Below are positions 1 to 30,013 of a stretch of DNA of 64,000 bases, one piece after another. A model generated the notes under the pieces. That model had not been told where the DNA came from and searched no databases. It was given only the letters and a program-made list of their open reading frames with translations. Position numbers and translations under genes: made by a program. Numbering within the stretch: the first letter of the stretch is position 1; every line of letters begins with the position of its first letter. Source of the stretch: an uncultured Gemmatimonadales bacterium (GTDB lineage: Bacteria; Gemmatimonadota; Gemmatimonadetes; Longimicrobiales; RSA9); contig OY970192.1 in the NCBI GenBank assembly GCA_963708135.1, positions 4,864,001 to 4,928,000 of the forward strand, given 5' to 3'.

Positions 1-1
1 G

Positions 2-2293
2 CTGGACTACGCGCACCGCCACGGCGTGGTCCACCGGGACATCAAGCCCGAGAACATCCTGCTGCACGACGGCCGGCCGATGGTGGCGGACTTCGGCATC
101 GCGCTGGCGGTCTCGGCGGCGGCCGGCGGCCGCATGACCGAGACCGGGCTGAGCCTCGGCACGCCGCACTACATGAGCCCGGAGCAGGCGACGGCGGAGA
201 AGGACCTCACCGGGCGAAGCGACGTCTACTCGCTCGCCAGTGTGCTGTACGAGATGCTGACGGGCGATCCGCCGCACACGGGCAGCTCGGCGCAGCAGAT
301 CATCATGAAGATCGTGACGGAGGAGGCAGCGCCGGTCACGAAGCTGCGCAGGTCGGTGCCGCCGAACGTTGCCGCGGCGGTGGCGAAGGCGCTGGAGAAG
401 CTGCCGGCGGACCGCTTCGAGAGCGCGAAGGCGTTCGCGGACGCGCTGGCGGACCCCCACTTCTCCACCGGGGCGGCGACGGGCTCGCACGCGGCCGGTG
501 GCGTTACCGTCCGGGGATTGGCACGTCACCCCCTCGTGCTCGGACTCGCGGCGGCGCTGGTCGCTACGGCCGGGATCGCGGTGTGGCAGTGGCGGGCCGC
601 GCACCGTGACGCCCCACGTCCCGTTGTGCGGGTTCAGATCGGGTTGCCTTCGACGATGCTCGTCACCAATGGGGGCCTCGGCACGAACGCAGCCGCCTCC
701 CCGGACGGAAGCGCCGCCGTCTACGCGCTTCCCGATTCGACAGGCACATCGCGGCTGTACCTTCGACCGCTCCGTCAGGGCGAGTCCCAGGTGATCACCG
801 GCACGGCCGGGGCCCAGCAGCCCTGCTTTTCGCCCGATGGCCGGTGGATCGCATACACCGTCGGTGCCACGGTCTGGAAGGTTCAGGCTTCGGGGGGCAC
901 GCCGGTGCGGATCGGCGATGCCGGGGCCGGTTCGATCGGAATCTCGTGGAGCCCTTCCGGTGTGATCATCGTAGCTGCCGCGTCAGGCCTCCTTGCGTTT
1001 CCGGAGAATGGCGGCGCGCCGCGGCTGCTTGCCAGAGGGGACTCCACCGCGGGTGAAACCTACAGGCAGCCGCTCGCGCTGCCGGACGGCAGGACGGCTC
1101 TCTTCACGATTGTCCCCGCAGAGGGTCTGGCCGAGACCCGCCTGGCCGAGGTGACGTTGGAGACAGGGTCGGTCCGGCGGCTCGACATGAGGCTTCTGGA
1201 CGTGCTCGGGTATCGTGATGGAAACCTCGTCTACGTCCTGCCCTCCGGTGCCCTGATGGGAGTCCCCTTCGATCTCGACGAGGGGAGGGCGACCGGCACG
1301 CCGGTGGCGCTCGGCCCTCCGGTCGCCACGTCCCTCGCCGGAGCCGCCCTGGCGGACCTGTCATCGGACGGGACGCTGGTGTACGTGCCGGCAAGCCGGA
1401 AAGGGGCGCTGGGGTGGGTCGGGCTGCAGGGCCAGTTCACGCCGGTTCTCTCCGACCCGGAAGCCTACGGCTATCCTCGTCTCTCTCCGGACGGGAAGCG
1501 CATCGCGGTGGCGGTGGGAACCGAAGCTCGCTCGGATGTCCTGGTCTACGACCTGGCGTCCGGCACCCCGACGCGGATCACCAACTCCGGCACACAGAAC
1601 GATCGACCGGAGTGGACCCCCGACGGACGTCGCGTGCTCTATCGGTCGGATCGCGGCGGCCCGACGGCGATCTGGTGGCAGCCCGTGGACCAGAGCGCGC
1701 CGGCGACGCCGTTGCAGGCGGCGGCATTGCACACGTTCTTCGAGGGGGTGATCACACCGGACGGCAAGACGCTCGTCTACCAGGTGGACGACGGGGGCGC
1801 GACCCAGGCCGACGTCATGTACCGGGCGCTCGAGGGCGACACGTCATCCCATCCCGTTGCGGCGACACGATTCGTGGAGGCGCAGGCGCGCGTTTCCCCC
1901 GACGGGCATTGGGTCGCCCTCGTGACCGACCAGTCCGGAGCGCAGCAGGTCGTGGTTCAACCCTTCCCCGACCCCGGCGGCCAGGTGCAGATCTCGGTCT
2001 CGGGCGGCACCGAGCCCGTGTGGTCTCGGGACGGGAAGCGCATCTTCTACCGCGACGGTCGCCACGTCGTTGCCGCGTCGGTGAGCACGGCCGGAGGATT
2101 CGCCGTGACGGGGCGCACGAATCTCTTTGCCGACACCTACGCCTTCGCCACCACCCCACACGCCAACTACGACGTGTCGCCCAATGGCACACGGCTGCTG
2201 ATGATCCGCAGCACCCAGATGCCGGAATACGACGTCGTCTACGGCTGGAGCAGCGAGCTGGCGGCCCGCATGCGCGGATCCGGCGCTCAATGA
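2..2293 (+). CDS. Ser/Thr protein kinase + TM + TolB/PD40-like beta-propeller ectodomain (array copy 1, 5'-partial)
   Basis: HRDIKPEN, DFG, GTPHYMSPEQ; TM PLVLGLAAALVATAGIAVWQW; repeated SPDG/TPDG blade motifs; frame open from window start. Confidence 0.93.
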   Translation: MDYAHRHGVVHRDIKPENILLHDGRPMVADFGIALAVSAAAGGRMTETGLSLGTPHYMSPEQATAEKDLTGRSDVYSLASVLYEMLTGDPPHTGSSAQQIIMKIVTEEAAPVTKLRRSVPPNVAAAVAKALEKLPADRFESAKAFADALADPHFSTGAATGSHAAGGVTVRGLARHPLVLGLAAALVATAGIAVWQWRAAHRDAPRPVVRVQIGLPSTMLVTNGGLGTNAAASPDGSAAVYALPDSTGTSRLYLRPLRQGESQVITGTAGAQQPCFSPDGRWIAYTVGATVWKVQASGGTPVRIGDAGAGSIGISWSPSGVIIVAAASGLLAFPENGGAPRLLARGDSTAGETYRQPLALPDGRTALFTIVPAEGLAETRLAEVTLETGSVRRLDMRLLDVLGYRDGNLVYVLPSGALMGVPFDLDEGRATGTPVALGPPVATSLAGAALADLSSDGTLVYVPASRKGALGWVGLQGQFTPVLSDPEAYGYPRLSPDGKRIAVAVGTEARSDVLVYDLASGTPTRITNSGTQNDRPEWTPDGRRVLYRSDRGGPTAIWWQPVDQSAPATPLQAAALHTFFEGVITPDGKTLVYQVDDGGATQADVMYRALEGDTSSHPVAATRFVEAQARVSPDGHWVALVTDQSGAQQVVVQPFPDPGGQVQISVSGGTEPVWSRDGKRIFYRDGRHVVAASVSTAGGFAVTGRTNLFADTYAFATTPHANYDVSPNGTRLLMIRSTQMPEYDVVYGWSSELAARMRGSGAQ

Positions 2294-2357
2294 GAGGAGC
2301 CCCGATGGACCAGCTCGAGACCTGCGAGACTGCAGCGCGTCCCTGCCGAGAACCGTC

Positions 2358-5033
2358 ATGAGCGACGTCGCCCCGCGCCTGTCCGCCGCCCTGGCCGACC
2401 GCTACCGCATCGAGCACGAGCTCGGCGCAGGCGGCATGGCCACGGTCTACCTCGCTGAGGACCTGCGCCACCAGCGGCAGGTCGCCATCAAGGTCCTCAA
2501 GCCCGAGCTGGCCGCGGTGCTGGGCGCCGAGCGCTTCGTCCAGGAGATCACCACCACCGCCCAGCTCCAGCACCCGCACATCCTGCCGCTCTTCGATTCC
2601 GGTACCGCGGACGGCTTCCTCTTCTACGTCATGCCGTACATCGAGGGCGAGACGCTGCGGGACCGGCTGAACCGCGAGACGCAGCTCGGGGTGGGTGAAG
2701 CGGTACGGATCACGCGGGAGGTAGCCGACGCGCTGGACTACGCACACCGCCACGGCGTCATCCACCGCGACATCAAGCCGGAGAACATCCTGCTGCACGA
2801 CGGCCGGCCGATGGTGGCCGATTTCGGTATCGCGCTGGCCGTTTCAGCCGCGGCCGGTGGCCGCATGACGGAGACGGGGCTCAGCCTCGGCACGCCGCAC
2901 TACATGAGCCCGGAGCAGGCGACGGCGGAGAAGGACCTCACCGGGCGCAGCGACGTCTACTCGCTCGCCAGTGTGCTGTACGAGATGCTGACGGGCGATC
3001 CGCCGCACACGGGCAGCTCGGCGCAGCAGATCATCATGAAGATCGTGACGGAGGAGGCAGCGCCGGTCACGAAGCTGCGCAGGTCGGTGCCGCCGAACGT
3101 CGCCGCGGCGGTGGCAAAGGCGCTGGAGAAGCTGCCGGCCGACCGGTTCGAGAGCGCGAAGGCGTTCGCGGACGCGCTGGCGGACCCGTCGTTCACGACC
3201 GCATCCGCCGCCATTGCCGCTCCTGCCTCCCTCGGCCGATCACGGATGACGATCTACGTGCTCGGCGCAGTCTGCCTCGTGCTCGCCGCCGCAACTGCCT
3301 ACTTCGCGTTCCGCCCGCCGCCAACGCCGCCGGCGAGCCGCCAGCGTGTCATCCTTTGGGACCGGGCGCCGGGGAGCGTTCTCGATCCGGGCAACACGCG
3401 CCTCCAGGCGAGCCAGGCCGCCATCTCGCCCGACGGTTCCGAGATCGTGTACAGCGAACCGACCGACAGTGGGTTCGTCCTGATGCGCAAGGACGGCGAT
3501 GAGGCGCTCGCGACGCCCCTCGCCGGCACCACGGGTGGGGTCGCGCCATTCTTTTCACCCGACGGCCGGTGGATCGGGTACCGCAGCGTGGACGGCAAGC
3601 TCAAGAAGGTTCCCGTCGTCGGCGGAGGCTCGGTGACTCTCGTCGACAACGTCGGTCTGGTGGTCAGCGCCGCGGCCACGTGGCTGGATGACGGAACGAT
3701 CGTGTACGGGGCGGGCGATGGACTCAGGCGCGTGAGTGCGTCCGGTGACAGCACCTGGGTCGTGAGGAAGTATTCAGGGTCGCAGGCGGGCGCCCGACTG
3801 CTCACGCTCTGGCCGCTCCCCAAGAGCCGGGGTGTGCTCTACACATACTGCTCGGGTAACTGCGCCGTGCGGTCGTCGGTGCGCGCGCTCGACCTGCGCA
3901 CCGGACAGGATCGTCTGCTCGTCTCCAACGCGGTCGGCGCGTGGTACGTCCCCGGCGGCTACCTGGTCTTCACCGATCGCGCGGGCGGGCTCTACGGCGT
4001 GGAACTCGATGTCGATCGACTGACGGTCACGTCCGGACGCGTTCCCCTGATTCCTGGCGTCGAACCGGGGAACTTCACGCTGTCGGCAAAGGGATCGGTG
4101 CTCTACGCCAGCCCAGGCGCCGGCGGCGGTGAAGCGTCGGAGCTCATGTGGGTCGCGCGCGACGGAGCGGCGGTTCCTCTCGACACGATGTGGAAGGCAG
4201 ACTTCAATTACCCCGCGATCTCGCCCGACGGCAAGACGCTGGCAGTGAGCGTCAGTGGCGAAACCACACAGCTCTGGCTCCGGCACGCCGATGGGGCGCG
4301 GGAACCGCTCACCCAGCAGGCCGCGGTCAACTGGCGGCCCGCGTGGACCGCTGACGGGCGATCCGTCGTGTTCCCCTCGAACCGGGGCGGGGACGTGGAC
4401 TCGACGTACTACGACCTCTACCGCATGGCAGTGAATCACAGCTCCCCCGCCCAGCGGCTCGTCCACTTCACGTATCCCGTGTGGGAAGGGGAGATCTCCG
4501 CTGACGGACAGTGGGTTGTGTTCCGGTCGGACGAAGAGCAGACCGTATCGCTCATTCACGCTCGGCGCATTCCCGGGGACACCGCGACCCGCCAGCTGCT
4601 CGGTGGAGATGGAGTATCCACCTTCAACTTCACGCTCTCACCCGACGGACGCTGGATCGCCTACGAGCTGTCCAAGCCCGGTGCTGACGATCAGATCTAC
4701 GTCGCGTCATTTCCAAACGTCACCGCGCCGAGGCAGGTCTCCCAGAGCGACGGATCCGAGCCCCGGTGGGCGCGCGGCGGCCGGGAGCTGTTCTACAAGA
4801 GCGGTGGAGAGCTGATGGCCGTTGACATCGAGCCGGAACCGACGCTCACGATCGGTTCGCCGCACGCTCTGTTCTCAGTGCTCCCGTACCGCTCCGCCAA
4901 CAATCGCCAGCAGTACGATGTGGCCCCGGACGGTCGCCACTTCGTCATGATCCGCAACGTCACGGAAGGACCCGAAACGGTCGTCTACATCGAGCACTGG
5001 TTCTCGGAGCTTCGAGCGAAGATGCATCAATGA
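2358..5033 (+). CDS. Ser/Thr kinase-TM-beta-propeller receptor (copy 2, 891 aa)
   Basis: GAGGMATVYLA, VAIKVL, HRDIKPEN, DFG; TM IYVLGAVCLVLAAATAYFAF; SPDG repeats. Confidence 0.95.
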   Translation: MSDVAPRLSAALADRYRIEHELGAGGMATVYLAEDLRHQRQVAIKVLKPELAAVLGAERFVQEITTTAQLQHPHILPLFDSGTADGFLFYVMPYIEGETLRDRLNRETQLGVGEAVRITREVADALDYAHRHGVIHRDIKPENILLHDGRPMVADFGIALAVSAAAGGRMTETGLSLGTPHYMSPEQATAEKDLTGRSDVYSLASVLYEMLTGDPPHTGSSAQQIIMKIVTEEAAPVTKLRRSVPPNVAAAVAKALEKLPADRFESAKAFADALADPSFTTASAAIAAPASLGRSRMTIYVLGAVCLVLAAATAYFAFRPPPTPPASRQRVILWDRAPGSVLDPGNTRLQASQAAISPDGSEIVYSEPTDSGFVLMRKDGDEALATPLAGTTGGVAPFFSPDGRWIGYRSVDGKLKKVPVVGGGSVTLVDNVGLVVSAAATWLDDGTIVYGAGDGLRRVSASGDSTWVVRKYSGSQAGARLLTLWPLPKSRGVLYTYCSGNCAVRSSVRALDLRTGQDRLLVSNAVGAWYVPGGYLVFTDRAGGLYGVELDVDRLTVTSGRVPLIPGVEPGNFTLSAKGSVLYASPGAGGGEASELMWVARDGAAVPLDTMWKADFNYPAISPDGKTLAVSVSGETTQLWLRHADGAREPLTQQAAVNWRPAWTADGRSVVFPSNRGGDVDSTYYDLYRMAVNHSSPAQRLVHFTYPVWEGEISADGQWVVFRSDEEQTVSLIHARRIPGDTATRQLLGGDGVSTFNFTLSPDGRWIAYELSKPGADDQIYVASFPNVTAPRQVSQSDGSEPRWARGGRELFYKSGGELMAVDIEPEPTLTIGSPHALFSVLPYRSANNRQQYDVAPDGRHFVMIRNVTEGPETVVYIEHWFSELRAKMHQ

Positions 5034-7711
5034 GCGACGTCCCCGAGGGTCTCGCAGCGGCCCTGGCGGACCGCTACCGCATGGAGCGGGAGCTCGGCGC
5101 GGGCGGCATGGCTACGGTCTACCTCGCCGAGGACCTGCGCCACCAGCGCCAGGTCGCCATCAAAGTGCTCAAGCCCGAGCTCGCCGCCGTGCTCGGCGCC
5201 GACCGCTTCGTCCAGGAGATCACGACCACCGCCCAGCTCCAGCACCCGCACATCCTGCCCCTCTTCGACTCGGGGACGGCCGACGGCTTCCTCTTCTACG
5301 TCATGCCCTACGTCGAGGGCGAGACGCTGCGGGACAAGCTGAACCGGGAGACGCAGCTCGGCGTCGACGAGGCGGTGCGCATCACGCGGGAGGTGGCCGA
5401 CGCCCTGGACTACGCCCACCGGCACGGCGTAATTCACCGCGACATCAAGCCCGAGAACATCCTGCTGCACGACGGCCGACCCATGGTGGCCGATTTCGGC
5501 ATCGCGCTGGCGGTTTCGGCCGCGGCGGGCGGGCGCATGACGGAGACCGGGCTCAGTCTCGGCACGCCGCACTACATGAGCCCGGAGCAGGCGACGGGGG
5601 AGCGCGACCTCACCGGTCGCAGCGACGTCTACTCGCTCGCGAGCGTGCTCTACGAGATGCTGACCGGCGACCCGCCGCACGTCGGCTCCTCGGCGCAGCA
5701 GATCATCATGAAGATCGTGACCGAGGAGGCCGCGCCGGTCACGAAGCTGCGCAAGAGCGTGCCGCCGAACGTGGCGGCGGCCGTCGCGAAGGCGCTGGAG
5801 AAGCTGCCGGCCGACCGGTTCGAGAGCGCGAAGGCGTTCGCCGAGGCGCTGGTGAATCCCGCGTACGGCATTGGACTGCAGGGTGCGGGCACGGCACCCG
5901 GCTCGTCGCGCCAGCGGCCTGCACGCTGGGCGATGGCCGCGGCGGCCGCGGTGGCGGTCCTGGCCGGAGCGGTGGGAGGCGTAATGCTCGGCAGGCGCGG
6001 GCTCGTCCGGCCCCTGGTGAGCCGCCAGCGGATCGAGCTGTGGCAGCAGCCGCCCGAGGCAGATGCGGTAGGCCGGGGCCTGGCCATCTCACCAGACGGC
6101 AACGTGATCGTGTTCAGGGATTCCGTGGGTGGCAGCTGGCAGCTCTGGTCCAAGGAGCGGGATCGACTCGAGGCGACCGTCCTGACCGGCACCACCGGTG
6201 CCCGGGCGCCGGTCTTCTCACCGGACGGGCAGTGGGTCGCGTTCGTCGCCGACGGCAAGCTCAAGAAGGTGCCGCGACTCGGCGGCTCCGCCGTGATCAT
6301 CGCGGACTCGGCCAACGAGGCACTTCCGGCCATTGCCTGGCTCGACAATGGAACGATCGCCTTCAACAACGCAGCGTATGGCCTGGTTCTCGTGGGGGAG
6401 GACGGCGGTGCCGTGCGTCGGCTCATTGGCACCGACAGCCTGAAGGGCGGTGTCGTAACGGCGACGCCATTCCCCGGGGGCACGGCCGTACTGCTGGGGC
6501 TTTGCGGGGCCGGTTGCTCCACCTCGCGTGTGGCGGCGCTCGACGTGCGCGGTGCCGCAGCGCCGAAGGAGCTTGCCGACGATGCCCTCAAGGCGTGGGC
6601 CGCTCCGGGTGGGGCGGTCGTGTTCATACGCCGCGATGGCGGCGTCTTCGTTGGAGCCTTCGACGGCGACCGGCTCGCGTTCACGGGAGCGCCGGTGCCG
6701 GTTCTGGACGGCGTGCAAGTCGACGCTCGTGGCGCCGACATGGCGCTGGGAAGGAACGGCACACTCATCTATGAGACCGGCGCTCCGCAGGGGGCCGTCC
6801 AGCCCGTCTGGGTCTCCCGCCAGGGCACCGTATCACCGGTGGATTCCGGATGGTCGTTCTCGCCGGGAGGCAGGGGCAGCTTCGCGCCCGGGCCCGCGCT
6901 CTCGCCGGACGGCCGGCGGGTGGCGGTCAGCGTGCAGTCCGGCAGCAGCGAGGACATCTGGATCAAGGAGCTGGGGGGCGGACGCCAGTTCACACGCCTC
7001 ACCTTCGGGGCGGGCCTCAAGTTCCGTCCGGCGTGGACGGCCGACGGCCGTAGCGTCGTCTATATCATCCGGCCTCCCGACGGCGAGACGAGCCTCATCG
7101 CGTCACGCCTTGCCGACGGCAGGGGCGGCGAGGTGACACTCTTCAAGACGCGTAACCTGAGCGAGGTCCAGCCGGCGCGCGACACGGCCCGACTCATCGT
7201 CCGCACCGGCTCCGTCCACCGGGCCATCCAGTTGTACACGCTTGGCGCCGACTCGCTGGTGCCGCTCCTGGCAGACCCCAACTACAATGATATGGGCCCG
7301 GCGCTTTCACCTGATGGACGATGGCTTGCGTACACCTCGGATGAAACGGGCCGGAGCGAGGTGTACGTCCGCCCCTTCCCGAAAGTGAGAGACGGGCGCT
7401 GGCCCGTATCGGCGAACGGGGGTTCGGAGCCCAAGTGGTCGCACTCCGGCCGCGAGCTGTTCTATCGCGCCGCGGACGGCGGATTCATCGCCACGGAGCT
7501 CAAGCCGGGTCCCACCTTCGCAAGCGCCACCCAGGAGCGGCTCTTCGACGCGAGCGAGTTCCAGTCCAGTAGCAAACACCACGCTTACGCCGTCGCACCT
7601 GGGGACGACCGGTTCCTCTTCTTCCGGCAGCAGAGTGGGTCGGCGTCACTGGTGATGGTGGAGCACTGGTTCGAGGAGCTGAAGGCGCGCGAGCAGGGGA
7701 AGAATCCGTAG
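5030..7711 (+). CDS. Ser/Thr kinase-TM-beta-propeller receptor (copy 3, 893 aa)
   Basis: All kinase motifs; TM WAMAAAAAVAVLAGAVGGVML; PALSPDGRWLAYTSDETGRSEVYVRPFP blade; ATGA overlap with copy 2. Confidence 0.95.
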   Translation: MSDVPEGLAAALADRYRMERELGAGGMATVYLAEDLRHQRQVAIKVLKPELAAVLGADRFVQEITTTAQLQHPHILPLFDSGTADGFLFYVMPYVEGETLRDKLNRETQLGVDEAVRITREVADALDYAHRHGVIHRDIKPENILLHDGRPMVADFGIALAVSAAAGGRMTETGLSLGTPHYMSPEQATGERDLTGRSDVYSLASVLYEMLTGDPPHVGSSAQQIIMKIVTEEAAPVTKLRKSVPPNVAAAVAKALEKLPADRFESAKAFAEALVNPAYGIGLQGAGTAPGSSRQRPARWAMAAAAAVAVLAGAVGGVMLGRRGLVRPLVSRQRIELWQQPPEADAVGRGLAISPDGNVIVFRDSVGGSWQLWSKERDRLEATVLTGTTGARAPVFSPDGQWVAFVADGKLKKVPRLGGSAVIIADSANEALPAIAWLDNGTIAFNNAAYGLVLVGEDGGAVRRLIGTDSLKGGVVTATPFPGGTAVLLGLCGAGCSTSRVAALDVRGAAAPKELADDALKAWAAPGGAVVFIRRDGGVFVGAFDGDRLAFTGAPVPVLDGVQVDARGADMALGRNGTLIYETGAPQGAVQPVWVSRQGTVSPVDSGWSFSPGGRGSFAPGPALSPDGRRVAVSVQSGSSEDIWIKELGGGRQFTRLTFGAGLKFRPAWTADGRSVVYIIRPPDGETSLIASRLADGRGGEVTLFKTRNLSEVQPARDTARLIVRTGSVHRAIQLYTLGADSLVPLLADPNYNDMGPALSPDGRWLAYTSDETGRSEVYVRPFPKVRDGRWPVSANGGSEPKWSHSGRELFYRAADGGFIATELKPGPTFASATQERLFDASEFQSSSKHHAYAVAPGDDRFLFFRQQSGSASLVMVEHWFEELKAREQGKNP

Positions 7712-18310: not shown

Positions 18311-18924
18311 CCGGTCCTTCCGAGCGCCTCGCCGCCGCCCTCGCCGACCGCTACCGCATCGAGCGCGAGCTCGGCGCGGGCGGCATGGCCACGGTCTACC
18401 TGGCCGAGGACCGGCGCCATCACCGGCAGGTGGCCATCAAGGTGCTCAAGCCCGAGCTCGCCGCCGTGCTCGGCGCCGATCGCTTCGTCCAGGAGATCAC
18501 CACCACCGCCCAGCTGCAGCACCCGCACATCCTGCCGCTCTTCGACTCCGGCACTGCCGACGGCTTCCTCTTCTACGTCATGTGGCAGGTCTCGTCCGGA
18601 GGCGGCGCGGCGCCGCGCTGGTCTCACGACGGCCGCGCCATCTTCTACATCGATCCTGCCAGGCGCATGAGAATGGCGGACGTTCGGACCTCGCCCACGT
18701 TCGCGCTCGTGGGCCAGCGGCTGCTCGGCTCGCAGCTGAGCGCCGCGGGGGCAGGTGGAGTGGCGTACGCATACTTCCCCACCTACGCCGTCACGCCCGA
18801 CGATCGACATTTCGTGATGCTGGCGCCTCCCGAGCACGGCTCGGCGCGTAGCGAGTTCGTTCCGGTGGTCGAGATCGAGCACTGGCGCCCCGGGACGCCG
18901 TTGAACCTGGGGCCGCGACGATGA
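18307..18924 (+). pseudogene. Internally deleted kinase-propeller copy 8 (kinase N-lobe fused in frame to the last propeller blades)
   Basis: Kinase sequence to ...GFLFYVM, then WQVSSGGGAAPRWSHDGR (junction ~18582/18583); no HRD, DFG or TM; ATGA overlaps at both ends. Confidence 0.85.
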
Positions 18925-21587: not shown

Positions 21588-21588
21588 G

Positions 21589-24258
21589 ATGATCCCCGAC
21601 CGCCTCGCCGCCGCCCTGGCCGACCGCTACCGCATCGAGCGCGAGCTCGGCGCGGGCGGCATGGCCACGGTCTACCTGGCCGAGGACCTCAGGCACGACC
21701 GCAAGGTGGCCATCAAGGTGCTCAAGCCCGAGCTGGCCGCCGTGCTCGGCGCCGAGCGCTTCGTGCAGGAGATCAAGACGACGGCGCAGCTGCAGCACCC
21801 GCACATTCTCCCCCTCTTCGACTCCGGCACCGCCGGCGGCTTCCTCTACTACGTCATGCCGTACCTCGAGGGCGAGACCGTTCGCGAGAAGCTCAACCGC
21901 GAGACGCAGCTCGGGGTGGCCGAGGCGGTGCGGATCACCACGGAGGTGGCGGACGCGCTCGATTACGCCCACCGCCACGGCGTGATCCACCGCGACATCA
22001 AGCCCGAGAACATCCTGCTGCACGACGGCCGGCCCATGGTCATGGACTTCGGCATCGCGCTGGCGGTCTCCGCCGCTGCGGGCGGGCGCATGACCGAGAC
22101 CGGGCTCTCACTCGGCACGCCGCATTACATGAGCCCGGAGCAGGCGACGGCGGACCGCGACATCACGGCGCGCTCCGACATCTACTCGCTGGCGAGCGTG
22201 CTGTACGAGATGCTCGCGGGCGAGCCGCCCCACATGGGCAACTCGGCGCAGCAGATCATCATGAAGATCGTGACGGAGGAGGCGGCGCCGGTCACGAGGC
22301 TGCGCAAGTCCGTGCCGCCGAACGTCGCGGCGGCGCTGTCGAAGGCGCTGGAGAAGCTCCCGGCCGATCGGTTCGACACCGCGAGGGAGTTCGGCGAGGC
22401 GCTCAAGGACCCGGCGTTCACTGGCCCGTCTGCCGCTCCCGCTGCCTCCGACAGGGTGCGGCGATCACCGGCGGTCACCTATCTCCTCATGGCCGCTTGC
22501 GTGGCGCTCGCAGCCCTCTCCGCCTGGTGCTGGCTCCGCTCGCGTCGCACGCCGGTAGCGTGGTTCATCATCGGCTTCCCCACGAATCAGGCGCCGAGCT
22601 ACTCGGCAGTCGGCACGCACGTGGCCCTCTCCCGTGACGGGGCGATGCTGGCGTACATCAGCGGGCCATCGGGCGACTCGAGGCTGTGGATCAAGCGACG
22701 CGATGCCCTGACGGCCGAGCCGATCCCCGGCACCGAGGGCGCGTACGATCCGTTCTTCTCGCCCGACGGGCGACAGCTCGGGTTCATCACCGATCGCAAC
22801 GGCCGCGCGATGAAGATCGTCAGTCTGGCCGGCGGTCCGCCCCACGCCGTCCCCGCCGCGGCGACCCGCGGGATGGGAACCGGCGGCGCCTGCTGGGCCA
22901 GCGACGGCTACATCTACTTCGACGCGGACCTCGGTGGGCTGCAGCGCGTGAAGCCCGACGGCACCGGCCTCGAGACCGTCGTGCCCCTCGATTCGGCGCG
23001 GAACGAGACGGGCGTCGCGTGGCCCGAAGTCCTGCCCGACAACAAGGTCGTGGTCTTCCGGCTCCGCCACGGCACCGACGCGCCGGGCGATTTTGCGATC
23101 GTCGCGCTTCGGATCGGCACGACGGAGCGCCGCGTCGTGGCGCGAGGCGTGAGCGCGCGTTACGCGTCCGGCCGGCTCCTCTGGGTCACCGCGGACGGCA
23201 CGCTGCAGGCGGCCCCGTTCGACGAACGGCACCTCGCGCTCACCGGTCCGGCGACCGGGGCCGGATATGGCGTGCGCGTCTATGGAGCCTATGCGGGCGC
23301 GGACCTCTCCATCACCGAGAGCGGGGATCTGTACTACGTCGCCGGAGCGGCGGGCGCCGCAACCACCCTCGACTGGGTCACGCGTGACGGCGTTACGCGG
23401 CCCGTGGATACGACGTGGAACGAGAGCAGCGAGATCCGGGGGCTCGCGCTCGCTCCGGACGGCAAGGAGGTGGCGCTCGATCTGGCCCGCCCGACGGGGA
23501 CCGACATCTGGATCAAGCACCTGCCCGCCGGCGCGCTCACGCGGCTGACGCTCGATTCCGCCGCGGACAGTCGGCCCCGGTGGTCCGGCGACGGGCGCGA
23601 CGTGCTCTTTCTCTCGGAGCGCGTGAAGCCGGCCGCGATCTTCCGGCGACGTGAAGACGGCACCGGCCATGCCGTCCTCGTCGCGCACGCGGACAGGAGC
23701 ATCACCGAGGCATCCGAGTCGCGGGATGGTCGCTGGCTCGTTGCGCGCACGTCGAGCTCGGAGCGGGGAAACGGCGACATTCTCGCGATGGAAGTCGGCC
23801 GGGATACGATGCTGCGACCGATCGTCGCGACCGCCGCGGCGGAGAGCAACCCGGATCTCTCGCCGGATGGCCGGTGGCTCCTGTACGTCTCCACCGCATC
23901 AGGACGACGCGAGGTGTACGTGCGTCCGTTCCCCGACGTGAACGGCGGCGTCTGGCAGATCTCCACCGAAGGCGGCGTGGAGCCGCGGTGGTCGCACGCC
24001 GGGAACGAGATCTTCTTCAGGGGCCTCGCCTCGCCCGACATGATGGCGGTCGACGTGCAGACGACGCCGGCGTTTCACGCGGGTGCGCCCCACGTGCTGT
24101 TTCACACGGACGCCGTAACCGGCCTGGACTACCCGCGCTACGACGTGGCACCCGACGATCGCCGCTTCCTCATGGTTGGACACGGCGGTGACACCGCCCC
24201 GCAACTGGTGCGCGTCGAGCACGTTCTCCAGGCTCTCGAGCGCAAGCCCGCACCGTGA
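21589..24258 (+). CDS. Ser/Thr kinase-TM-beta-propeller receptor (copy 10, 889 aa)
   Basis: All kinase motifs; TM VTYLLMAACVALAALSAWCWL. Confidence 0.95.
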   Translation: MIPDRLAAALADRYRIERELGAGGMATVYLAEDLRHDRKVAIKVLKPELAAVLGAERFVQEIKTTAQLQHPHILPLFDSGTAGGFLYYVMPYLEGETVREKLNRETQLGVAEAVRITTEVADALDYAHRHGVIHRDIKPENILLHDGRPMVMDFGIALAVSAAAGGRMTETGLSLGTPHYMSPEQATADRDITARSDIYSLASVLYEMLAGEPPHMGNSAQQIIMKIVTEEAAPVTRLRKSVPPNVAAALSKALEKLPADRFDTAREFGEALKDPAFTGPSAAPAASDRVRRSPAVTYLLMAACVALAALSAWCWLRSRRTPVAWFIIGFPTNQAPSYSAVGTHVALSRDGAMLAYISGPSGDSRLWIKRRDALTAEPIPGTEGAYDPFFSPDGRQLGFITDRNGRAMKIVSLAGGPPHAVPAAATRGMGTGGACWASDGYIYFDADLGGLQRVKPDGTGLETVVPLDSARNETGVAWPEVLPDNKVVVFRLRHGTDAPGDFAIVALRIGTTERRVVARGVSARYASGRLLWVTADGTLQAAPFDERHLALTGPATGAGYGVRVYGAYAGADLSITESGDLYYVAGAAGAATTLDWVTRDGVTRPVDTTWNESSEIRGLALAPDGKEVALDLARPTGTDIWIKHLPAGALTRLTLDSAADSRPRWSGDGRDVLFLSERVKPAAIFRRREDGTGHAVLVAHADRSITEASESRDGRWLVARTSSSERGNGDILAMEVGRDTMLRPIVATAAAESNPDLSPDGRWLLYVSTASGRREVYVRPFPDVNGGVWQISTEGGVEPRWSHAGNEIFFRGLASPDMMAVDVQTTPAFHAGAPHVLFHTDAVTGLDYPRYDVAPDDRRFLMVGHGGDTAPQLVRVEHVLQALERKPAP

Positions 24259-24355: not shown

Positions 24356-24361
24356 CTTTCC

Positions 24362-24757: not shown

Positions 24758-25020
24758 CGCCCGCCGGCCTGCCGCTCCGCCCGGATCTCGCGGATCCAGG
24801 CCTCGGCCTTCTCTTCCGTCAGCCCCAGTCGCGCCTGCAGCTCGTCCAGCGCGGCAATGGCGTTGGAGGCGGCGTCCGCCTCTTCGATGATCGCGGCCGT
24901 GTTCACGATGCGCCGCACGACCTCGGACTTGGACACGCCCCAGCGCTCGGCGAGCTCATCGAGTGCCGCCACCGTCTCGGGGTCGAGCGCGAAGGTGGTC
25001 CGTATCGTCATCCTGGCCAT
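24754..25020 (-). CDS. vapB: Ribbon-helix-helix (CopG-like) antitoxin
   Basis: MTIRTTFALDPETVAALDELAERWGVSKSEVVRR RHH signature; ~88 aa, directly upstream of the PIN gene. Confidence 0.8.
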   Translation of the reverse strand: MARMTIRTTFALDPETVAALDELAERWGVSKSEVVRRIVNTAAIIEEADAASNAIAALDELQARLGLTEEKAEAWIREIRAERQAGGR

Positions 25021-25025
25021 GCCGA

Positions 25026-25054
25026 AAGTTATGGCCATAACAACCCCTCCGCAA
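25026..25054 (-). promoter_or_regulatory. vapBC promoter with palindromic operator
   Basis: Minus strand TTGCGG-17-TAACTT, 5 nt before the ATG; perfect palindrome GTTATGGCCATAAC at 25028-25041. Confidence 0.65.
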
Positions 25055-25167
25055 GGAACGCGGTTCCGCCAGCGCAGAAGGATCGGGATACCGGCGGGGC
25101 GGGTCCATGGCGCAGTGGGACGGGACGAGCCGCCGGGCGGTAACATCAACCAAGTGGAGGACTGCAG

Positions 25168-27330
25168 ATGAGGAAGCGGATCGTGTGGACGGCGGGCCTA
25201 CCGGCCCAGGTGGCGCTGCTGACGGTGCCGGCAGCCATGCTGATCACCCTGACGGCCGCCGCGCCATTGACCGCGCAGCAGCATCCCAAGTCCCGGGCCG
25301 ATACGGCCGCCGCGGACACCGTCGTCGCCCCGCACACCGACTTCCGGCTCACCGATCTGCGCCGGCTCGTCCAGGTGGGGAGTCCCGAGATCAGCCCTGA
25401 CGGCAAGCGGATTGCCTACGTGGTCACGCGCCAGGACTGGAAGGACGACAAGGCGCGCCGCGAGCTCGACCTGGTGGACGTGGCCGACGGCGCCACGCGT
25501 CCCCTTACCTACCGGCGCGACGGCGTGGGCTCGCCGCGCTGGTCGCCCTCCGGCAGTCGGCTCGCCTTCGTGGCCCCGGACACAGCCACCAAGAAGGGGC
25601 AGATCTGGGTGCTCAGCATGGCCGGCGGCGACCCGGTCCGGCTCACCGACTCGAAGACCGGCATCTCGGCATACTCGTGGAGCCCGGACGGGCGCACCAT
25701 CGCCTACATCGCGCAGGACACGGTACCGGATCCCAAGGCCATCAAGCACCACGAGGACGCGTTCCAGATCACGCTGAACAACTACCAGATCCGCAAGGCC
25801 CCCCAGCCGTGGCACCTCTGGATCGTTCCGGCAGACGGCGGCAAGGCCAGGCGCCTGACCGCGGGGAGCTGGAGCCTCGAGACCGTCCCCGGCGGCGCGG
25901 CGCCGCCGGCGTGGAGCGCGGACGGGAAGTCGCTTGTCGTGGTGCGGCATCCGGGCGTATGGTTCGGAGACGCCTACCGTTCCACCCTCATCCGCGTGGA
26001 CACCGCCGCCGCCGCCGACTCCACGCCGGCCCTGGCCGTCGGCGCGCCCGACACTGCGGCTACGCGCGTTGGCACGACCGGCGACACCCTCTTCGCGGGC
26101 GAGGGCGCGGGCGATCCCCGCGTCGCACCGAAGGGCGCGGCCCTGGCCTTCCAGCGCGCCCGCGGCGGCGACATGAACAACGGGAACGCCGTCTATGTGG
26201 CGGAGGACGGCAAGGTGCGCGACGCAACCGCGGACATGGCACGCGACATCGGCGCCTTCGCCTGGCTCCCCGACGGCCGCTCGTTCCTGCTCACCGGCGC
26301 GCTCGGCGGCCGCTCGGTCCTGTGGCTGAAGCCGGAGGACGGCGCGGCCCGCGTGCTCGACCTGGGCGGCGTACAGCCGGCGGGCACGCCGAGCGTGGCC
26401 GAGAATGGCGCGGTGGCCTTCGTCGGCCGGGCGGCAGATCAGCCCGGGCAGCTGTACTACCTGGCGTCGCCTGACGCGAAGCCGAAGCAGCTCACGCACG
26501 TCAACGCGTTCCTCGACTCGATGCACCTGGCACGCGTCAACACCATCGCGTGGCGTGGGCCTGGCGGGTTCTCCGAGGACGGCGTGCTCAACTACCCGGC
26601 CGACTACGTGAAGGGGACGAGATTGCCGCTGGTGCTGGTCATCCACGGCGGGCCCGAGGGCGCCTCGACGGCGACGTTCTCGCCTCTTCCCCAGCTCCTG
26701 GCCGCGCACGGCTACCTTGTCTTCGAGCCCAACTACCGGGGAAGCATCAACCTGGGCGACGGCTATCAGCACGCCATCTACCGCAACACCGGCCAGGGTC
26801 CGGGCGAGGACGTCATGGCCGGGCTGGCCGCGGTCGAGAGGCTGGGCGTGGTGGACACCAGCCGCATCGCCGTCTCGGGCTGGTCCTACGGCGGCTACAT
26901 GACCACGTGGCTGACCGGCCACTACCATCCGTGGAAGGCGGCCGTGGCCGGCGCCGCGCTCACCGACTGGGTCATGGACTACACCATCGCCTTCTACCAG
27001 AAGGGCGACCTGTACTTCTTCGGCGGCTCGCCGTGGGCGAAGGAGTACTGGGACATCTGGCGCGAGCAGTCGCCCATCCAGTACGCGCGCAACGTGACCG
27101 CGCCCACCCTCGTCATGGGCGACGTCGGCGATCCCAACGTTCCCATCGTCAACAACCTCGAGTGGTACCACGCACTTCGCGACAACGGCGTCGAGACCGA
27201 GTTCTGGGCGTACCCCGCCGACTCCCATTTCCCCGGCGACATTGTGCGCCAGACCGATGTCTACCGCCGCTGGATCGACTGGATGGACCGACACCTGAAG
27301 GAACCGGTGAAGGCGGCACCGAAGCCGTGA
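25168..27330 (+). CDS. S9 family (prolyl oligopeptidase/acylaminoacyl peptidase-like) exported serine peptidase
   Basis: Signal-peptide-like N-terminus, propeller repeats, IHGGP, NYRGS, GWSYGG nucleophile, D(PNVP) and H(FP); RBS GGAGG. Confidence 0.92.
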   Translation: MRKRIVWTAGLPAQVALLTVPAAMLITLTAAAPLTAQQHPKSRADTAAADTVVAPHTDFRLTDLRRLVQVGSPEISPDGKRIAYVVTRQDWKDDKARRELDLVDVADGATRPLTYRRDGVGSPRWSPSGSRLAFVAPDTATKKGQIWVLSMAGGDPVRLTDSKTGISAYSWSPDGRTIAYIAQDTVPDPKAIKHHEDAFQITLNNYQIRKAPQPWHLWIVPADGGKARRLTAGSWSLETVPGGAAPPAWSADGKSLVVVRHPGVWFGDAYRSTLIRVDTAAAADSTPALAVGAPDTAATRVGTTGDTLFAGEGAGDPRVAPKGAALAFQRARGGDMNNGNAVYVAEDGKVRDATADMARDIGAFAWLPDGRSFLLTGALGGRSVLWLKPEDGAARVLDLGGVQPAGTPSVAENGAVAFVGRAADQPGQLYYLASPDAKPKQLTHVNAFLDSMHLARVNTIAWRGPGGFSEDGVLNYPADYVKGTRLPLVLVIHGGPEGASTATFSPLPQLLAAHGYLVFEPNYRGSINLGDGYQHAIYRNTGQGPGEDVMAGLAAVERLGVVDTSRIAVSGWSYGGYMTTWLTGHYHPWKAAVAGAALTDWVMDYTIAFYQKGDLYFFGGSPWAKEYWDIWREQSPIQYARNVTAPTLVMGDVGDPNVPIVNNLEWYHALRDNGVETEFWAYPADSHFPGDIVRQTDVYRRWIDWMDRHLKEPVKAAPKP

Positions 27331-27364
27331 GCTTCGATGCCGAGGTCTGTCGCAGGAGGAGGCG

Positions 27365-30013
27365 ATGGCTGATGCCAGTGGCCGCCTGAGCGCCGCCCTC
27401 TCGGGCCGCTACGGCATCGAGCGCGAGCTCGGTGAGGGCGGGATGGCCACGGTGTATCTGGCCGAAGACCTGAAGCACCGCCGGATGGTGGCGCTGAAGG
27501 TGCTCAAGCCGGAGCTGGCCGCGCTGGTGGGCGCGGACCGCTTCCTGACGGAGATCGAGACCACCGCCAACCTGCAGCACCCCCACATCCTGCCGCTCTT
27601 CGACTCGGGCGAGGCGGATGGATTCCTGTACTACGTGATGCCCTGGATCGAGGGCGAGTCGCTCCAGGGGCGACTCGACCGGGAGCACCAGCTTCCGATC
27701 GGTGAGGCGCTCGCGATCGCGGAGAAGGTGGCCGCGGCGCTGCAGTACGCGCACGAGCAGGGGGTGGTGCACCGGGACATCAAGCCGGATAACATCCTGC
27801 TCTCGCGGGGCGAGCCGCTCGTGGCCGACTTCGGCATTGCGCTGGCGGTGAGCCACGCCAGAGGCGGGCGCCTCACCGAGACCGGGCTCAGCGTGGGCAC
27901 GCCCCACTACATGAGCCCGGAGCAGGCCGCGGGCGAACGAGAGATCGATCCAAGATCGGACGTGTACTCACTGGCCTGCGTGCTGTACGAGATGCTCACC
28001 GGGCAGCCGCCCTTCGGCGGCACCACCGGCCAGGCGGTGCTCGCGCGCATCCTGACCGGAGAGCCCGATCGGCCCACCGCGCACCGACGCAGCGTCCCGG
28101 CCCACGTGGAGGCGGCGCTGCTCAAGGCGCTCGAGCGCCTTCCAGCCGACCGCTTCGCCAGCGCGGCGGCCTTCGCCGCGGCCCTCGAGAACCCGTCCTT
28201 CGGCGCGGACGCCCGCCGCCCCGCAGGAGCCGGCGCCGCCACCGCCGCGCCGCGGAGCTCGCCCGGGCGCCGGCTGCTTCCCTGGGCGATCGCGGTCCTC
28301 GCGGTGGCAGTCGCCGTGGCGTCAACCGTCTTCCGGCGCGGCGGTCCCGACCGCCATCCGCTCCGTGTCGATCTCATGCCGCCCGCGGGCACGGAGTTCT
28401 CCGAGTTCCGGTTTGCGGCTCTGTCTCCCGACGGGTCGAAGCTCGCGTTCGTCGGACTCCGTCCGGCCGGCGGGCGTGTGCTCTGGATCCGCGACCTCGA
28501 GAGCGGCCGCACGGATTCCCTTCACGCCGCCAGCGGCGCTCAGGCCCCGTTCTGGTCCCCCGACGGCAAGGCCATTGGCTACTTCGCCGCGGGGAACCTG
28601 CGGCGCATCCAGGCCGATGGCACCGCCGCGCAGTCGCTGTGCGACACTCCCGATGTCGGTGGCTCCTGGAGCAGCCGCGGCGCGATCGTATTCACCCGTC
28701 TCGGGCACCCCATGACCGTGGCTGCCGGCGGCGGCGCGTGCACGCCGGTGCGCGGCGCGTGGACGGACTCGTCGAAGACCGTCACTGAACCCGCCTGGCT
28801 CCCCGACGGCATCCACTTCGCCGCCACGGACGGGGGCATCAACATCGTGGTGAGCGACGTGGCCGGCGACGCGCCGCGGCTCATGATCGCCGATGCCGGT
28901 GACGTGCACTTCGTCGCGCCAGATCTCATCGTCTTCGCCAAGGGCAGCCCGGGGGGCGCCGATATCGTTGCCCAGCATTTCGAGCCCGGGACCCTCGCCC
29001 TCGTCGGCTCACCCACGACGCTCGCCCACGACGTCCGAGCGGCCAGCGGCGTCACCTCCTACGCCGTCACGGATAGCGCGCTGGTCTACCTGCATGCGAC
29101 CCGCACGGACCAGGGGCCGCTCGTCGTCGACGAGCGCGGGGTCATCGTGGACAGCATCGCCCAGCAGGGGTCCTGGACCTTGCGCCTGGCCAACGGCCAT
29201 CCCCTGCTGGCGCTGGCGGGCGACGGCGTCTGGGAGTACGACCTCGAGCGCCGCACCGCCGTTGTCGTGAGAGGCGCGAGCGCCATGTACGCATTCCCTG
29301 TGTGGAGCCCGGACGATACGATCCTCGCGGTCGCGCGCTGGAGCCCGCACTGCGCCGTGAGCCTGCTGCGGCTTCGATCCGGAACGGACACGATCATCGT
29401 CAACGAGCGGGAATCGCACCGCCGCCTGCTCTGTTCCTCCCCGAGCGACTGGACGCGGGACGGCCGCTTCCTCGTCCTGACGATGATTCCCGCAGGTTCT
29501 CCGGACCACGGAGAGATCTGGACCTACGAGCCGGCCACGGGGAAGCTCGACAAGCTCGTCGCCGTGGATGGGGCGGCCTCGGCAGGCGTGGTATCGCCCG
29601 ACGAGCGCTGGCTGGCCTACGTCTCCGACGAGACCGGTGAGCTGGAGGTATACGTGCGCCCCTTCCGCAGCGCGGGCGCCGCCGTGCGCGTGTCAACCCG
29701 CGGCGGCGGCAACCCGCGCTGGAGCGGCGACGGCCGCGCGCTCTTCTACATCGCGCCGGACGGATGGGTCGTGCGCGTGCCGGTCCCGGCGGGGCCCGAC
29801 CTGCGCCCGGGATCGCCGGAAGCCCTGTTTGCCGCCCCGCGGTGGAGCATCCGGCTGTTCGCGGATCAGGCTGGCGGACAGCAGCAGACGACCCCCTTCG
29901 ACGTGAGCGCCGATGGCAAGCGCTTCTTCGTGCGCCAGCGCAGCGAGACGACGCAGGCGGGCAACCTGGTCCTGGGCTGGCGTGCCCTGCTGGGCGAAAA
30001 GGCCGAGCCATGA
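27365..30013 (+). CDS. Ser/Thr kinase-TM-beta-propeller receptor (copy 12, 882 aa; divergent kinase subtype)
   Basis: GEGGMATVYLA, HRDIKPDN, DFG, GTPHYMSPEQ; TM LLPWAIAVLAVAVAVASTVF; RBS GGAGG. Confidence 0.95.
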   Translation: MADASGRLSAALSGRYGIERELGEGGMATVYLAEDLKHRRMVALKVLKPELAALVGADRFLTEIETTANLQHPHILPLFDSGEADGFLYYVMPWIEGESLQGRLDREHQLPIGEALAIAEKVAAALQYAHEQGVVHRDIKPDNILLSRGEPLVADFGIALAVSHARGGRLTETGLSVGTPHYMSPEQAAGEREIDPRSDVYSLACVLYEMLTGQPPFGGTTGQAVLARILTGEPDRPTAHRRSVPAHVEAALLKALERLPADRFASAAAFAAALENPSFGADARRPAGAGAATAAPRSSPGRRLLPWAIAVLAVAVAVASTVFRRGGPDRHPLRVDLMPPAGTEFSEFRFAALSPDGSKLAFVGLRPAGGRVLWIRDLESGRTDSLHAASGAQAPFWSPDGKAIGYFAAGNLRRIQADGTAAQSLCDTPDVGGSWSSRGAIVFTRLGHPMTVAAGGGACTPVRGAWTDSSKTVTEPAWLPDGIHFAATDGGINIVVSDVAGDAPRLMIADAGDVHFVAPDLIVFAKGSPGGADIVAQHFEPGTLALVGSPTTLAHDVRAASGVTSYAVTDSALVYLHATRTDQGPLVVDERGVIVDSIAQQGSWTLRLANGHPLLALAGDGVWEYDLERRTAVVVRGASAMYAFPVWSPDDTILAVARWSPHCAVSLLRLRSGTDTIIVNERESHRRLLCSSPSDWTRDGRFLVLTMIPAGSPDHGEIWTYEPATGKLDKLVAVDGAASAGVVSPDERWLAYVSDETGELEVYVRPFRSAGAAVRVSTRGGGNPRWSGDGRALFYIAPDGWVVRVPVPAGPDLRPGSPEALFAAPRWSIRLFADQAGGQQQTTPFDVSADGKRFFVRQRSETTQAGNLVLGWRALLGEKAEP

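Follow-up and report, generated by a model that had tools for sequence, protein, structure and literature searches.

The window that we analysed is a stretch of 64,000 nucleotides, and its host is a soil-type Gemmatimonadota chromosome. Positions 1-30013 carry a row of twelve kinase-derived open reading frames, all on the forward strand, which comprises ten copies with a whole kinase domain, one internal-deletion derivative and one remnant of 30 codons. Within the row there are also genes for an S9 peptidase and, in antisense orientation, a VapBC pair. The genes of the row are as follows.

c01, 1..2293, + strand: receptor Ser/Thr kinase (kinase, TM helix, double PD40 propeller), truncated by the window edge
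c02, 2358..5033, + strand: receptor Ser/Thr kinase, 891 aa; ectodomain (residues 330-891) modelled
c03, 5030..7711, + strand: receptor Ser/Thr kinase, 893 aa
c04, 7712..10375, + strand: receptor Ser/Thr kinase, 887 aa
c05, 10372..13068, + strand: receptor Ser/Thr kinase, 898 aa
c06, 13065..15665, + strand: receptor Ser/Thr kinase, 866 aa; ectodomain of a different type
c07, 15662..18310, + strand: receptor Ser/Thr kinase, 882 aa
c08, 18307..18924, + strand: in-frame deletion derivative, 205 aa
c09, 18921..21587, + strand: receptor Ser/Thr kinase; kinase domain of a divergent type
c10, 21589..24258, + strand: receptor Ser/Thr kinase, 889 aa
c11, 24255..~24344, + strand: remnant consisting of the first ~30 kinase codons
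c12, 25168..27330, + strand: S9-family peptidase (hydrophobic leader at the N-terminus, PD40 propeller); not a kinase, interrupts the row
c13, 27365..30013, + strand: receptor Ser/Thr kinase; its kinase domain is the most divergent in the row

The initial annotation had described twelve same-strand kinase copies over 30 kb, linked from copy 2 to copy 11 by ATGA/GTGA overlaps or gaps of 0-1 nt and continuing past the left edge of the window, and the ORF layout, Pfam matches and surrounding genome sequence bear this description out. All nine junctions from c02 to c11 fit it, with a 4-nt ATGA/GTGA overlap at seven, a 0-nt gap at one and a 1-nt gap at one; c01 and c02 are separated by 64 nt. The true start of c01 is a GTG codon at genome position 4863627, 373 nt left of the window, where the gene overlaps its upstream neighbor u1 by GTGA. 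Besides u1, the leftward extension includes three more kinases (u2, u3 and u4), which are interspersed with non-kinase genes and reach genome position 4844688. The unbroken run from u1 to c11 consists of twelve kinase-derived ORFs, and the extended cluster holds 14 full-length copies. The same-strand arrangement with 4-nt overlaps suggests co-transcription and translational coupling; promoter and terminator scans gave counts at chance level (terminator-like sites: 5 found with 4.4 expected, and 2 found with 2.9 expected) and are uninformative about transcription units.

Two copies record losses of sequence. In c08, an in-frame fusion joins kinase residues 1-92 to the C-terminal ~110 aa of a propeller (its final blade or blades). 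The Pkinase match (38.3 bits) covers profile positions 1-77 only, and the ATGA overlaps are retained at both ends. In c11, which has no Pkinase match, the remainder of the gene is replaced by an antisense toxin-antitoxin pair, and blastx of this region found no kinase or sensor remnants past the first 30 codons.

A row of similar genes could also be produced if an assembler concatenated dispersed kinase genes or collapsed a repeat. The region is indeed repeat-rich, and two contigs of a related genome (G009) share 13.5 kb at 99.6% identity, which may reflect assembly redundancy in that MAG. Against an artefact, the window sits inside one N-free contig of 5.45 Mb, the kinase copies differ from each other by 7-12% of nucleotides and carry unique sensors, and intact ORFs are joined by precise 4-nt overlaps. 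Independent assemblies also repeat the layout: same-strand runs of at least two kinases at ~2.7-kb spacing are found in 47 of 76 related loci and runs of at least three in 27 of the 76, the longest having seven members. We give next to no credence to an assembly artefact, and regard the tandem arrangement as real and recurrent among relatives.

The domain composition of the genes is uniform. Pkinase and PD40 exceed their Pfam cut-offs in all ten copies that possess a kinase domain, Pkinase (PF00069) scoring 87-173 bits where 31.7 are required. The catalytic motif set of Hanks-type kinases consists of the glycine loop, the VAIK lysine, HRD, DFG and the SPE/APE segment; glycine-loop, VAIK, HRD, DFG and SPE patterns are all present in 14/14 full-length copies of the extended cluster, and each of these copies also has a single dominant hydrophobic (TM) segment at residues ~296-326. 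An unconserved linker of ~30-50 aa separates the kinase from the TM helix, which is followed by an ectodomain of ~555 aa with two beta-propellers. The AlphaFold2 model of the c02 ectodomain is an all-beta double propeller (pLDDT 90.2, pTM 0.85), and its C-terminal propeller aligns (VIA-align) with TolB structures at Z 28.1 (2ojh, rmsd 2.6 over 255 aa), 26.6 (1c5k) and 25.4 (7mx5), at about 20% identity to TolB; other six-bladed propellers score Z about 20. Foldseek with the whole two-propeller model of c02 returned generic double-propeller proteins only (TM about 0.33). Together, motifs and model show each gene as a cytoplasmic Hanks-type kinase, a TM helix and a predicted periplasmic double propeller, the C-terminal one TolB/PD40-like and six-bladed, which agrees with the receptor architecture proposed at the outset.

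No NCBIfam model reaches its cut-off on c02, c06, c08 or c12, therefore these proteins are without a curated equivalog. The PknD model (NF009651) reaches 140.7 of the 839 bits that it requires and covers the kinase part only, the model for PASTA kinases (PknB/Stk1, NF033483) scores 307.5 bits against 450 over residues 11-276 only, with no Pfam match to PASTA repeats in the array kinases, and the TolB model (TIGR02800) scores 79.7 bits against 343, the propeller fold alone being shared. TolB shares with the array proteins the fold of the C-terminal propeller and a periplasmic location (predicted here), but the array protein carries a kinase, a TM helix and two propellers, and the window shows no Tol-Pal gene neighborhood. 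Mycobacterium tuberculosis PknD is a receptor Ser/Thr kinase whose extracellular sensor is a six-bladed beta-propeller (PDB 1rwi); papers on PknD include PMC1847690 and PMC3322341. As in the array genes, one PknD chain runs from a Hanks kinase through a single TM helix to an extracytoplasmic beta-propeller, and its sensor fold is near that of the array propeller (1rwi_B, Z 20.3, rmsd 3.1 over 236 aa). It is, however, a single gene with one NHL-type propeller, whereas the array comprises many full-length copies with two propellers each, the C-terminal one TolB/PD40-like, and with kinase modules that appear to have been exchanged by recombination. Tyagi et al. (2010, PMC2877116) list PD40 repeats among the domains most often linked to Ser/Thr kinases of prokaryotes, and on that listing the combination of kinase and PD40 was therefore already known; tandem arrays, concerted evolution and module exchange are absent from the passages of that article considered here, in which the word "tandem" occurs only in a cited title on tandem repeats of cell-surface proteins.

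Reading the propellers as ligand receptors would lean on the analogy with PknD-type kinases (PDB 1rwi). They may instead serve in the periplasm as scaffolds or as gates for peptides, comparable to the propellers of S9 peptidases or TolB, and hold the kinases at envelope structures, in which case the array would diversify localisation and not input. The best structural match, TolB, is a binder of envelope proteins, Pfam reports weak matches to the N-terminal propellers of DPPIV and S9 peptidases, and an S9 peptidase with a PD40 propeller is encoded inside the row. We consider a scaffolding role unlikely, yet credible enough to be kept in mind, and continue to treat the ectodomains as sensors.

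The conservation of the two gene halves is strikingly unequal. The exact activation segment GGRMTETGLSLGTPHYMSPEQ occurs eight times in the forward frames of positions 1-30013, that is, in eight of the ten copies in which such a segment is present; c09 and c13 differ. Kinases of the core group (u1, c01, c02, c03, c04 and c07) are 94-97% identical in amino acids and 88-93% in nucleotides; those of c05, c06 and c10 match the core at 83-91% of amino acids, and those of c09 and c13 are 66-73% identical to all other copies. Ectodomains within the window share 17-42% amino acid identity, and the c06 ectodomain gives only fragmentary matches to a profile of the array ectodomains. Among core kinase paralogs dN is 0.026-0.050, dS 0.26-0.45 and omega 0.08-0.15. 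The two parts of the earlier reading, a near-constant kinase (with an activation segment identical in eight of ten copies) and a bank of variable, diversifying sensors, fared differently in these domain-wise comparisons: the constancy of the kinases beside far less conserved ectodomains is real, and the diversification is contradicted by the history of the sensors.

All sensor types have full-length orthologs in other Gemmatimonadota genera, at 60-97% amino acid identity, and the sensor tree pairs orthologs across genomes with an SH-aLRT of 100. Full-length relatives of c02 were found at 55-75% identity (8000 candidates scored). The omega of sensor orthologs is 0.25-0.41, and between paralogous sensors the 4-fold sites are saturated (about 38%). 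These comparisons show the sensor types as old paralog lineages, conserved between genera under purifying selection. The opposite scenario is a young amplified array in which kinases are alike because of recent duplication and sensors diversify fast under positive selection, as in plant RLK/NLR clusters. It would account for highly similar kinases beside dissimilar sensors in one row, for a gene order that differs in relatives, and for the turnover evident in the c08 deletion derivative and the c11 remnant. Nevertheless, it conflicts with sensor orthologs in other genera, with omega values well under 1, with synonymous sites that are saturated in paralogous sensors and not in kinases, and with a kinase dS that is not that of young copies; we regard it as very unlikely. 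Because of this dS and of the conflict between kinase and sensor trees described below, simple recent duplication is not supported as the source of kinase sameness, which we attribute instead to strong purifying selection (omega about 0.1) together with recombination. Given the same dS, most of the amino acid sameness stems from purifying selection and not from fresh homogenisation. A whole-gene duplicate does occur in the cluster: c09 duplicates the upstream u2, with 94% identity in the kinase and 76% in the ectodomain (aa).

Evidence for recombination comes from trees, identities and discrete tracts. Six array kinases of G009 form one clade (SH-aLRT 96), and their sensors are orthologous to different genes of the genome studied here (G000). 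For groups that were picked after the trees had been inspected, AU tests on the kinase alignment rejected forcing the c01 orthologs together (p 0.0016), were marginal for the c10 pair (p 0.036) and not significant for the c07 pair (p 0.128), and on the sensor alignment rejected the forced kinase clades (p 5e-79 and 2e-37). The c01 kinase is 97% identical to that of c02 and 84% to that of its G009 sensor ortholog. Among 78 genes with both a cross-genome sensor ortholog and a same-genome paralog, the kinase is nearer to the paralog in 39 (six of nine in G000) and nearer to the sensor ortholog in the other 39; exchange is therefore frequent and not universal. Within G000, kinase identity has a median of 72% for same-cluster pairs, 80-97% for tandem neighbors and a median of 66.5% for dispersed pairs, and sensor identity is about 30% in same-cluster and dispersed pairs alike. 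Three features in the window mark individual events.

218..369 (c01), + strand: tract of 152 nt identical to 2949-3100 (c02), in the kinase C-lobe
2528..2644 (c02), + strand: tract of 117 nt identical to 7885-8001 (c04)
13815..13865 (c06, about gene nt 765), + strand: recombination breakpoint near the LEKLPADRF codons, the last conserved kinase block

The permutation test for identical runs disregards differences in rate between codon positions, therefore only the 152-nt and 117-nt runs are counted as evidence; the former is a putative recent conversion tract. At the breakpoint, c06 passes from 81% to 98% nucleotide identity with its ortholog at locus L011, with 144 differences in nt 1-764 and 10 over the following ~535 nt. 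Neither of the two c06-type kinases has a close local donor, the best match being c05 at 87% of nucleotides, so the event may have run in either direction, with the kinase overwritten or the sensor imported. The identity profiles of u1 and c05 are mosaic as well.

Kinases could also have converged within each genome without any recombination, through very strong purifying selection combined with co-adaptation of each lineage to a shared partner. Such an account would fit the low omega of the kinases, the 80-93% identity of the core kinase type over many MAGs and the half of the 78 genes that give no indication of exchange. The synonymous sites nonetheless tell the same story as the proteins, since 4-fold identity of the kinases is 63-76% within the G000 core and 54-58% between c01 or c10 and their sensor-ortholog partners in G009 and G012. 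Furthermore, the two identical tracts lie in core kinase copies whose third positions are 74-83% identical overall, and selection on the protein could not produce the step seen in c06. This account is in our opinion highly improbable, and we favor exchange.

The kinase-coding 5' ~765 nt are thus shown to be a separate evolutionary module that is under strong purifying selection and has been repeatedly exchanged between copies. The route is homologous recombination or gene conversion, with crossovers inside the kinase, notably in its last conserved block. As a consequence of module exchange, kinases group largely by genome or neighborhood and sensors by orthology. As in concertedly evolving tandem arrays, kinase paralogs are closer within a genome than orthologs between genomes, the trees of the two gene halves conflict, and discrete tracts and breakpoints are present, with conversion tracts ending where homology ends. 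Plant receptor-like kinase clusters likewise join a conserved signalling half to a diverse sensing half, which is an analogy only. The array differs from both in that homogenisation affects only one half of the gene, the sensors are old and conserved instead of rapidly diversifying, and exchange is also intergenomic.

The last point follows from a comparison of G000 with a further genome, G021, in which sensor dS is 0.04 (c06), 0.12 (u1) and 0.28 (c05), whereas two large minus-strand ORFs of the rpoB region, which is 84% identical in nucleotides, have dS values of 0.46 and 0.71; this background is drawn from one conserved region and one transporter region, and the genomes compared are MAGs that may include chimeric binning. 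These values show some sensor halves as having apparently moved between genomes far later than the core genomes diverged. The receptor kinase family is very common in Gemmatimonadota, and gene order varies among relatives.

Overall, we consider it likely that the locus is an operon-like tandem array of receptor kinases with old sensors and an exchangeable kinase module, whose members would share substrates. Since the kinase module is nearly constant in most copies, many periplasmic signals would be expected to lead to phosphorylation of a common substrate set, and copies may possibly cross-phosphorylate each other. If the module does give a common output, the array would represent a design of many inputs and one output that is maintained by recombination. 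We further propose, tentatively and as something we would sooner bet against than for, that kinase modules serve as portable homology arms, making fragments that run from the end of one kinase through the sensor to the start of the next kinase swappable by homologous recombination; periplasmic sensors would in that case be exchanged as cassettes, with the array as the exchange system, within the genome and between Gemmatimonadota genera. Were this true, a cell could supply new inputs to one fixed phospho-signalling output.

Discussion of Hanks-type receptor kinases in bacteria usually concerns single genes, and here they form operon-like rows of one family, in which half of each gene is a shared exchangeable module and the other half an old, specific sensor; some sensors appear mobile between lineages. 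In a search of CC-licensed PMC and bioRxiv literature, neither tandem arrays of Ser/Thr kinases nor conversion of a kinase module turned up as the subject of a paper, be it on Gemmatimonadota or on other bacteria. The array supplies natural matched chimeras, with the same kinase joined to different sensors, with which ligands and substrates could be sought in a soil phylum that has received little study. A PP2C match lies 1.6 kb upstream of u4, where the kinases begin, and the support for calling it the cognate phosphatase was too weak. The survey of the genome yielded two FHA matches and four PP2C matches.

The kinase row at 1-30013 is real: ORF, Pfam and junction analysis agree with the initial annotation, which had reported 12 kinases there, and the activation segment that it quoted occurs exactly eight times. 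In the window (G000:C1:4864001-4928000 of a genome, G000, that is a single 5.45-Mb contig with 72% G+C), ORF listing, translation and Pfam identified 12 kinase-derived ORFs, all on the + strand, and a whole Pkinase domain in 10 of them (c01-c07, c09, c10 and c13 in consecutive numbering). The first, c01, is truncated by the window edge, its true start lying 373 nt further left. Of the nine junctions from c02 to c11, seven are ATGA/GTGA overlaps; at the remaining two the genes directly abut (0 nt) in one case and are 1 nt apart in the other. The array does go on past the left edge, as had been proposed: a further kinase gene, u1, is joined to c01 by a GTGA overlap, and three more (u2, u3 and u4, the last with a TPR type of ectodomain) stand amid unrelated genes leftward to 4844688. 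Within the row, c08 originated by an in-frame internal deletion that fused the N-lobe of the kinase to the final blade of the propeller and has an ATGA overlap at either end, and c11 retains about 30 kinase codons, the remainder being taken up by an antisense PIN/RHH (VapBC-like) pair. The row also includes an S9-family peptidase, whose top NCBIfam match, Dpp5, is far under its cut-off. A further, c08-like deletion remnant is found in another cluster of the same genome.

18307-18924, + strand: c08, intact 205-aa ORF; kinase residues 1-92 joined in frame to the last ~110 propeller residues
24362-24757, - strand: PIN-domain ORF of the VapBC-like toxin-antitoxin pair, at the site expected for the c11 body
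24754-25041, - strand: ribbon-helix-helix ORF of the same pair; 4-nt overlap with the PIN ORF
25168-27330, + strand: S9-family peptidase inside the kinase row; Peptidase_S9 141.6 bits, PD40 propeller, N-terminal hydrophobic leader
L009:7392-7733 (G000 4807.4-4807.7 kb), - strand: 113-aa ORF, C-terminal propeller blade only, flanked by kinases of another tandem cluster, of 3 genes

The closest match of the c08 propeller tail (42%) is not a row member but a dispersed paralogue located at 1738 kb.

The row genes have a receptor architecture. The kinase motifs (glycine loop, VAIK, HRD, DFG and SPE) are present in 14 of 14 full-length copies of the extended cluster (u1-u4 and the window copies), and in each copy a single hydrophobic stretch, at residues ~296-326, dominates. 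Modeled with AlphaFold2 from 61 sequences, the c02 ectodomain is all-beta (pLDDT 90.2, pTM 0.85), and the model's Foldseek matches are double-propeller proteins. In VIA-align, the C-terminal propeller (model residues ~260-541) matches TolB (2ojh, Z 28.1, rmsd 2.6, 255 aa; 1c5k, Z 26.6), with which it has the fold alone in common; other six-bladed propellers, including the PknD sensor (1rwi, Z 20.3), score clearly lower, at Z ~20. PknD is the closest characterised propeller-sensor receptor kinase, but the row proteins fall outside PknD in NCBIfam, where no model attains its cut-off. An ectodomain profile of the array retrieved 21 full-length or near full-length members from G000, 12 of them in this cluster; it matches c06 only in fragments, which indicates that c06 is another propeller type.

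The sensors are old and conserved rather than hypervariable, and the "variable repertoire" of the initial annotation needs correction. Ectodomains in the window share 17-42% amino acid identity, and 4-fold sites of paralogue sensors are saturated (~38% identity versus 38% expected from composition). Full-length relatives of c02 at 55-75% identity occur in many metagenomic contigs. When the sensors of 35 genes in G000 and the related genomes G009 and G012 are placed in a tree, cross-genome groups appear with SH-aLRT 100 (c01 with G009 C2_11448 and G012 C1_8147; c10 with C2_14114; c07 with C2_23160). Compared with closer genomes, G021 (locus L011) and G022 (locus L064), orthologue sensors have 79-97% amino acid identity and omega of 0.25-0.41. 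Relatives are labeled Gemmatimonadales/Gemmatimonadota.

The kinase module is both selectively constrained and exchanged by recombination. The core kinases (u1, c01-c04, c07) share 94-97% amino acid identity, yet just 88-93% nucleotide identity, and their 4-fold-site identity is 63-76% versus ~46-52% at saturation. Since omega is 0.08-0.15 and dS 0.26-0.45 (dN 0.026-0.050, NG86), purifying selection accounts for most of the protein-level sameness. Tree conflict, identical tracts, a boundary in the identity profile and a neighborhood effect are beyond what it explains. In the kinase tree, the six array kinases of G009 group together as one clade (SH-aLRT 96), beside which the G000 core copies are unresolved, each at most 0.15 substitutions per site from a common node, and this grouping contradicts the sensor tree. 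In AU tests of groups named only after the trees had been seen, the kinase alignment rejects forcing the c01 orthologues together (-93.6 lnL, p 0.0016), gives p 0.036 for the c10 pair and does not reject the c07 pair (p 0.128), and the sensor alignment loses 1139 and 569 lnL when the kinase groups are imposed on it (p 5e-79 and 2e-37). A wider sample (216 genes, 69 genome labels) includes 78 genes with a sensor orthologue elsewhere at 55% or more and a same-genome paralogue below 45%. The kinase is nearer the paralogue in 39 of the 78 and nearer the orthologue in 39 (6:3 in G000, 5:1 in G021, 3:2 in G009); absent exchange, hardly any gene should fall in the paralogue-nearer class. The exact tracts that neighboring copies have in common, one of 152 nt (218-369 and 2949-3100) and one of 117 nt (2528-2644 and 7885-8001), stand against an overall third-position identity of 74-83% among core copies, whose mean identity drops from 0.87-0.95 to 0.35-0.45 across alignment codons ~270-285, the kinase domain end. 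Kinases of other G000 tandem neighbors are 82% (g2835m/g2837m) and 80-85% (the 4804-4810 kb trio) identical, and dispersed pairs have a median of 66.5%; sensor identity is ~30% in both classes alike.

Breakpoints are also seen between genomes. c06 differs from its L011 orthologue at 144 positions in the first 764 nt and at 10 in the next ~535 nt; the switch lies near the codons of the last conserved kinase block, and from there identity is 96-100% per 100 nt up to the gene end. The u1 and c05 profiles are likewise mosaic.

dS between G000 and G021 orthologues
c06: sensor 0.04, kinase 0.48
u1: sensor 0.12, kinase 0.46
c05: sensor 0.28, kinase 0.35
c01: sensor 0.45, kinase 0.38
c04: sensor 0.49, kinase 0.43

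The rpoB region of these genomes is 84% identical in nucleotides, with two large minus-strand ORFs at dS 0.71 and 0.46, and a transporter region is 73-77% identical. By comparison with the rpoB-region values, the sensor halves of c06 and u1, at least, are much younger between the two genomes than conserved core genes. This comparison with MAGs suggests that lineages have recently exchanged sequence, probably by crossovers within the kinase module. No close local kinase donor was found that would give the exchange a direction. Relatives have array members in common but arrange them in different orders (L011: c04, u1, c05, c01, u1', c06; L064: c09, c07, c04, ?, c02, ?, c05).

Kinase matches at E <= 1e-40 occur in 15 of 21 related genomes, with high numbers only in G000 (36), G009 (44), G012 (14) and G011 (13). 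G009 has rows of 9 and 8 kinase matches (10 and 8 kinase-bearing frames in a second listing), and 13.5 kb of kinase row is present on two of its contigs (C2:6078-19574 and C16:304387-317881; L001-L004) at 99.6% nucleotide identity, reflecting a very recent segmental duplication or else redundancy in the MAG assembly. Of 76 loci of ~20 kb fetched from 66 MAGs around relatives of c02, 47 contain two or more kinases in a same-strand run and 27 contain three or more, the longest run having seven. PMC2877116 places kinase + PD40 among the common prokaryotic kinase architectures. In CC-licensed PMC and bioRxiv papers, neither tandem arrays of such kinases nor exchange of the kinase module turned up.

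The shared output suggested in the initial annotation is plausible: many periplasmic inputs would converge on one kinase specificity and hence on one common set of substrates. With kinase domains so nearly alike, copies might also phosphorylate one another, and the 4-nt overlaps suggest a single, translationally coupled transcript. Selection may favor homogenisation, or it may be a mere outcome of tandem arrangement and of high nucleotide identity kept by purifying selection. The TolB-like fold and the similarity to the S9 propeller hint at peptides or envelope proteins as candidate ligands.

Directly upstream of u4, the kinase that opens the extended cluster, are a PP2C phosphatase, one of four PP2C matches in G000, and a beta-lactamase-family serine hydrolase (G000:C1:4842134-4844645; L007:6134-8645). 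Past u4, the opposite strand carries another PIN gene (L007:11381-11794). To the right of the row, a 426-aa ORF (30140-31420, - strand) has no Pfam match, and two further ORFs could be assigned:

31617-32153, - strand: DUF559 / REase_MTES_1575-like endonuclease-fold ORF, just beyond the kinase row
50415-52217, - strand: ORF with a dynamin-family GTPase domain (Dynamin_N 59.7 bits)
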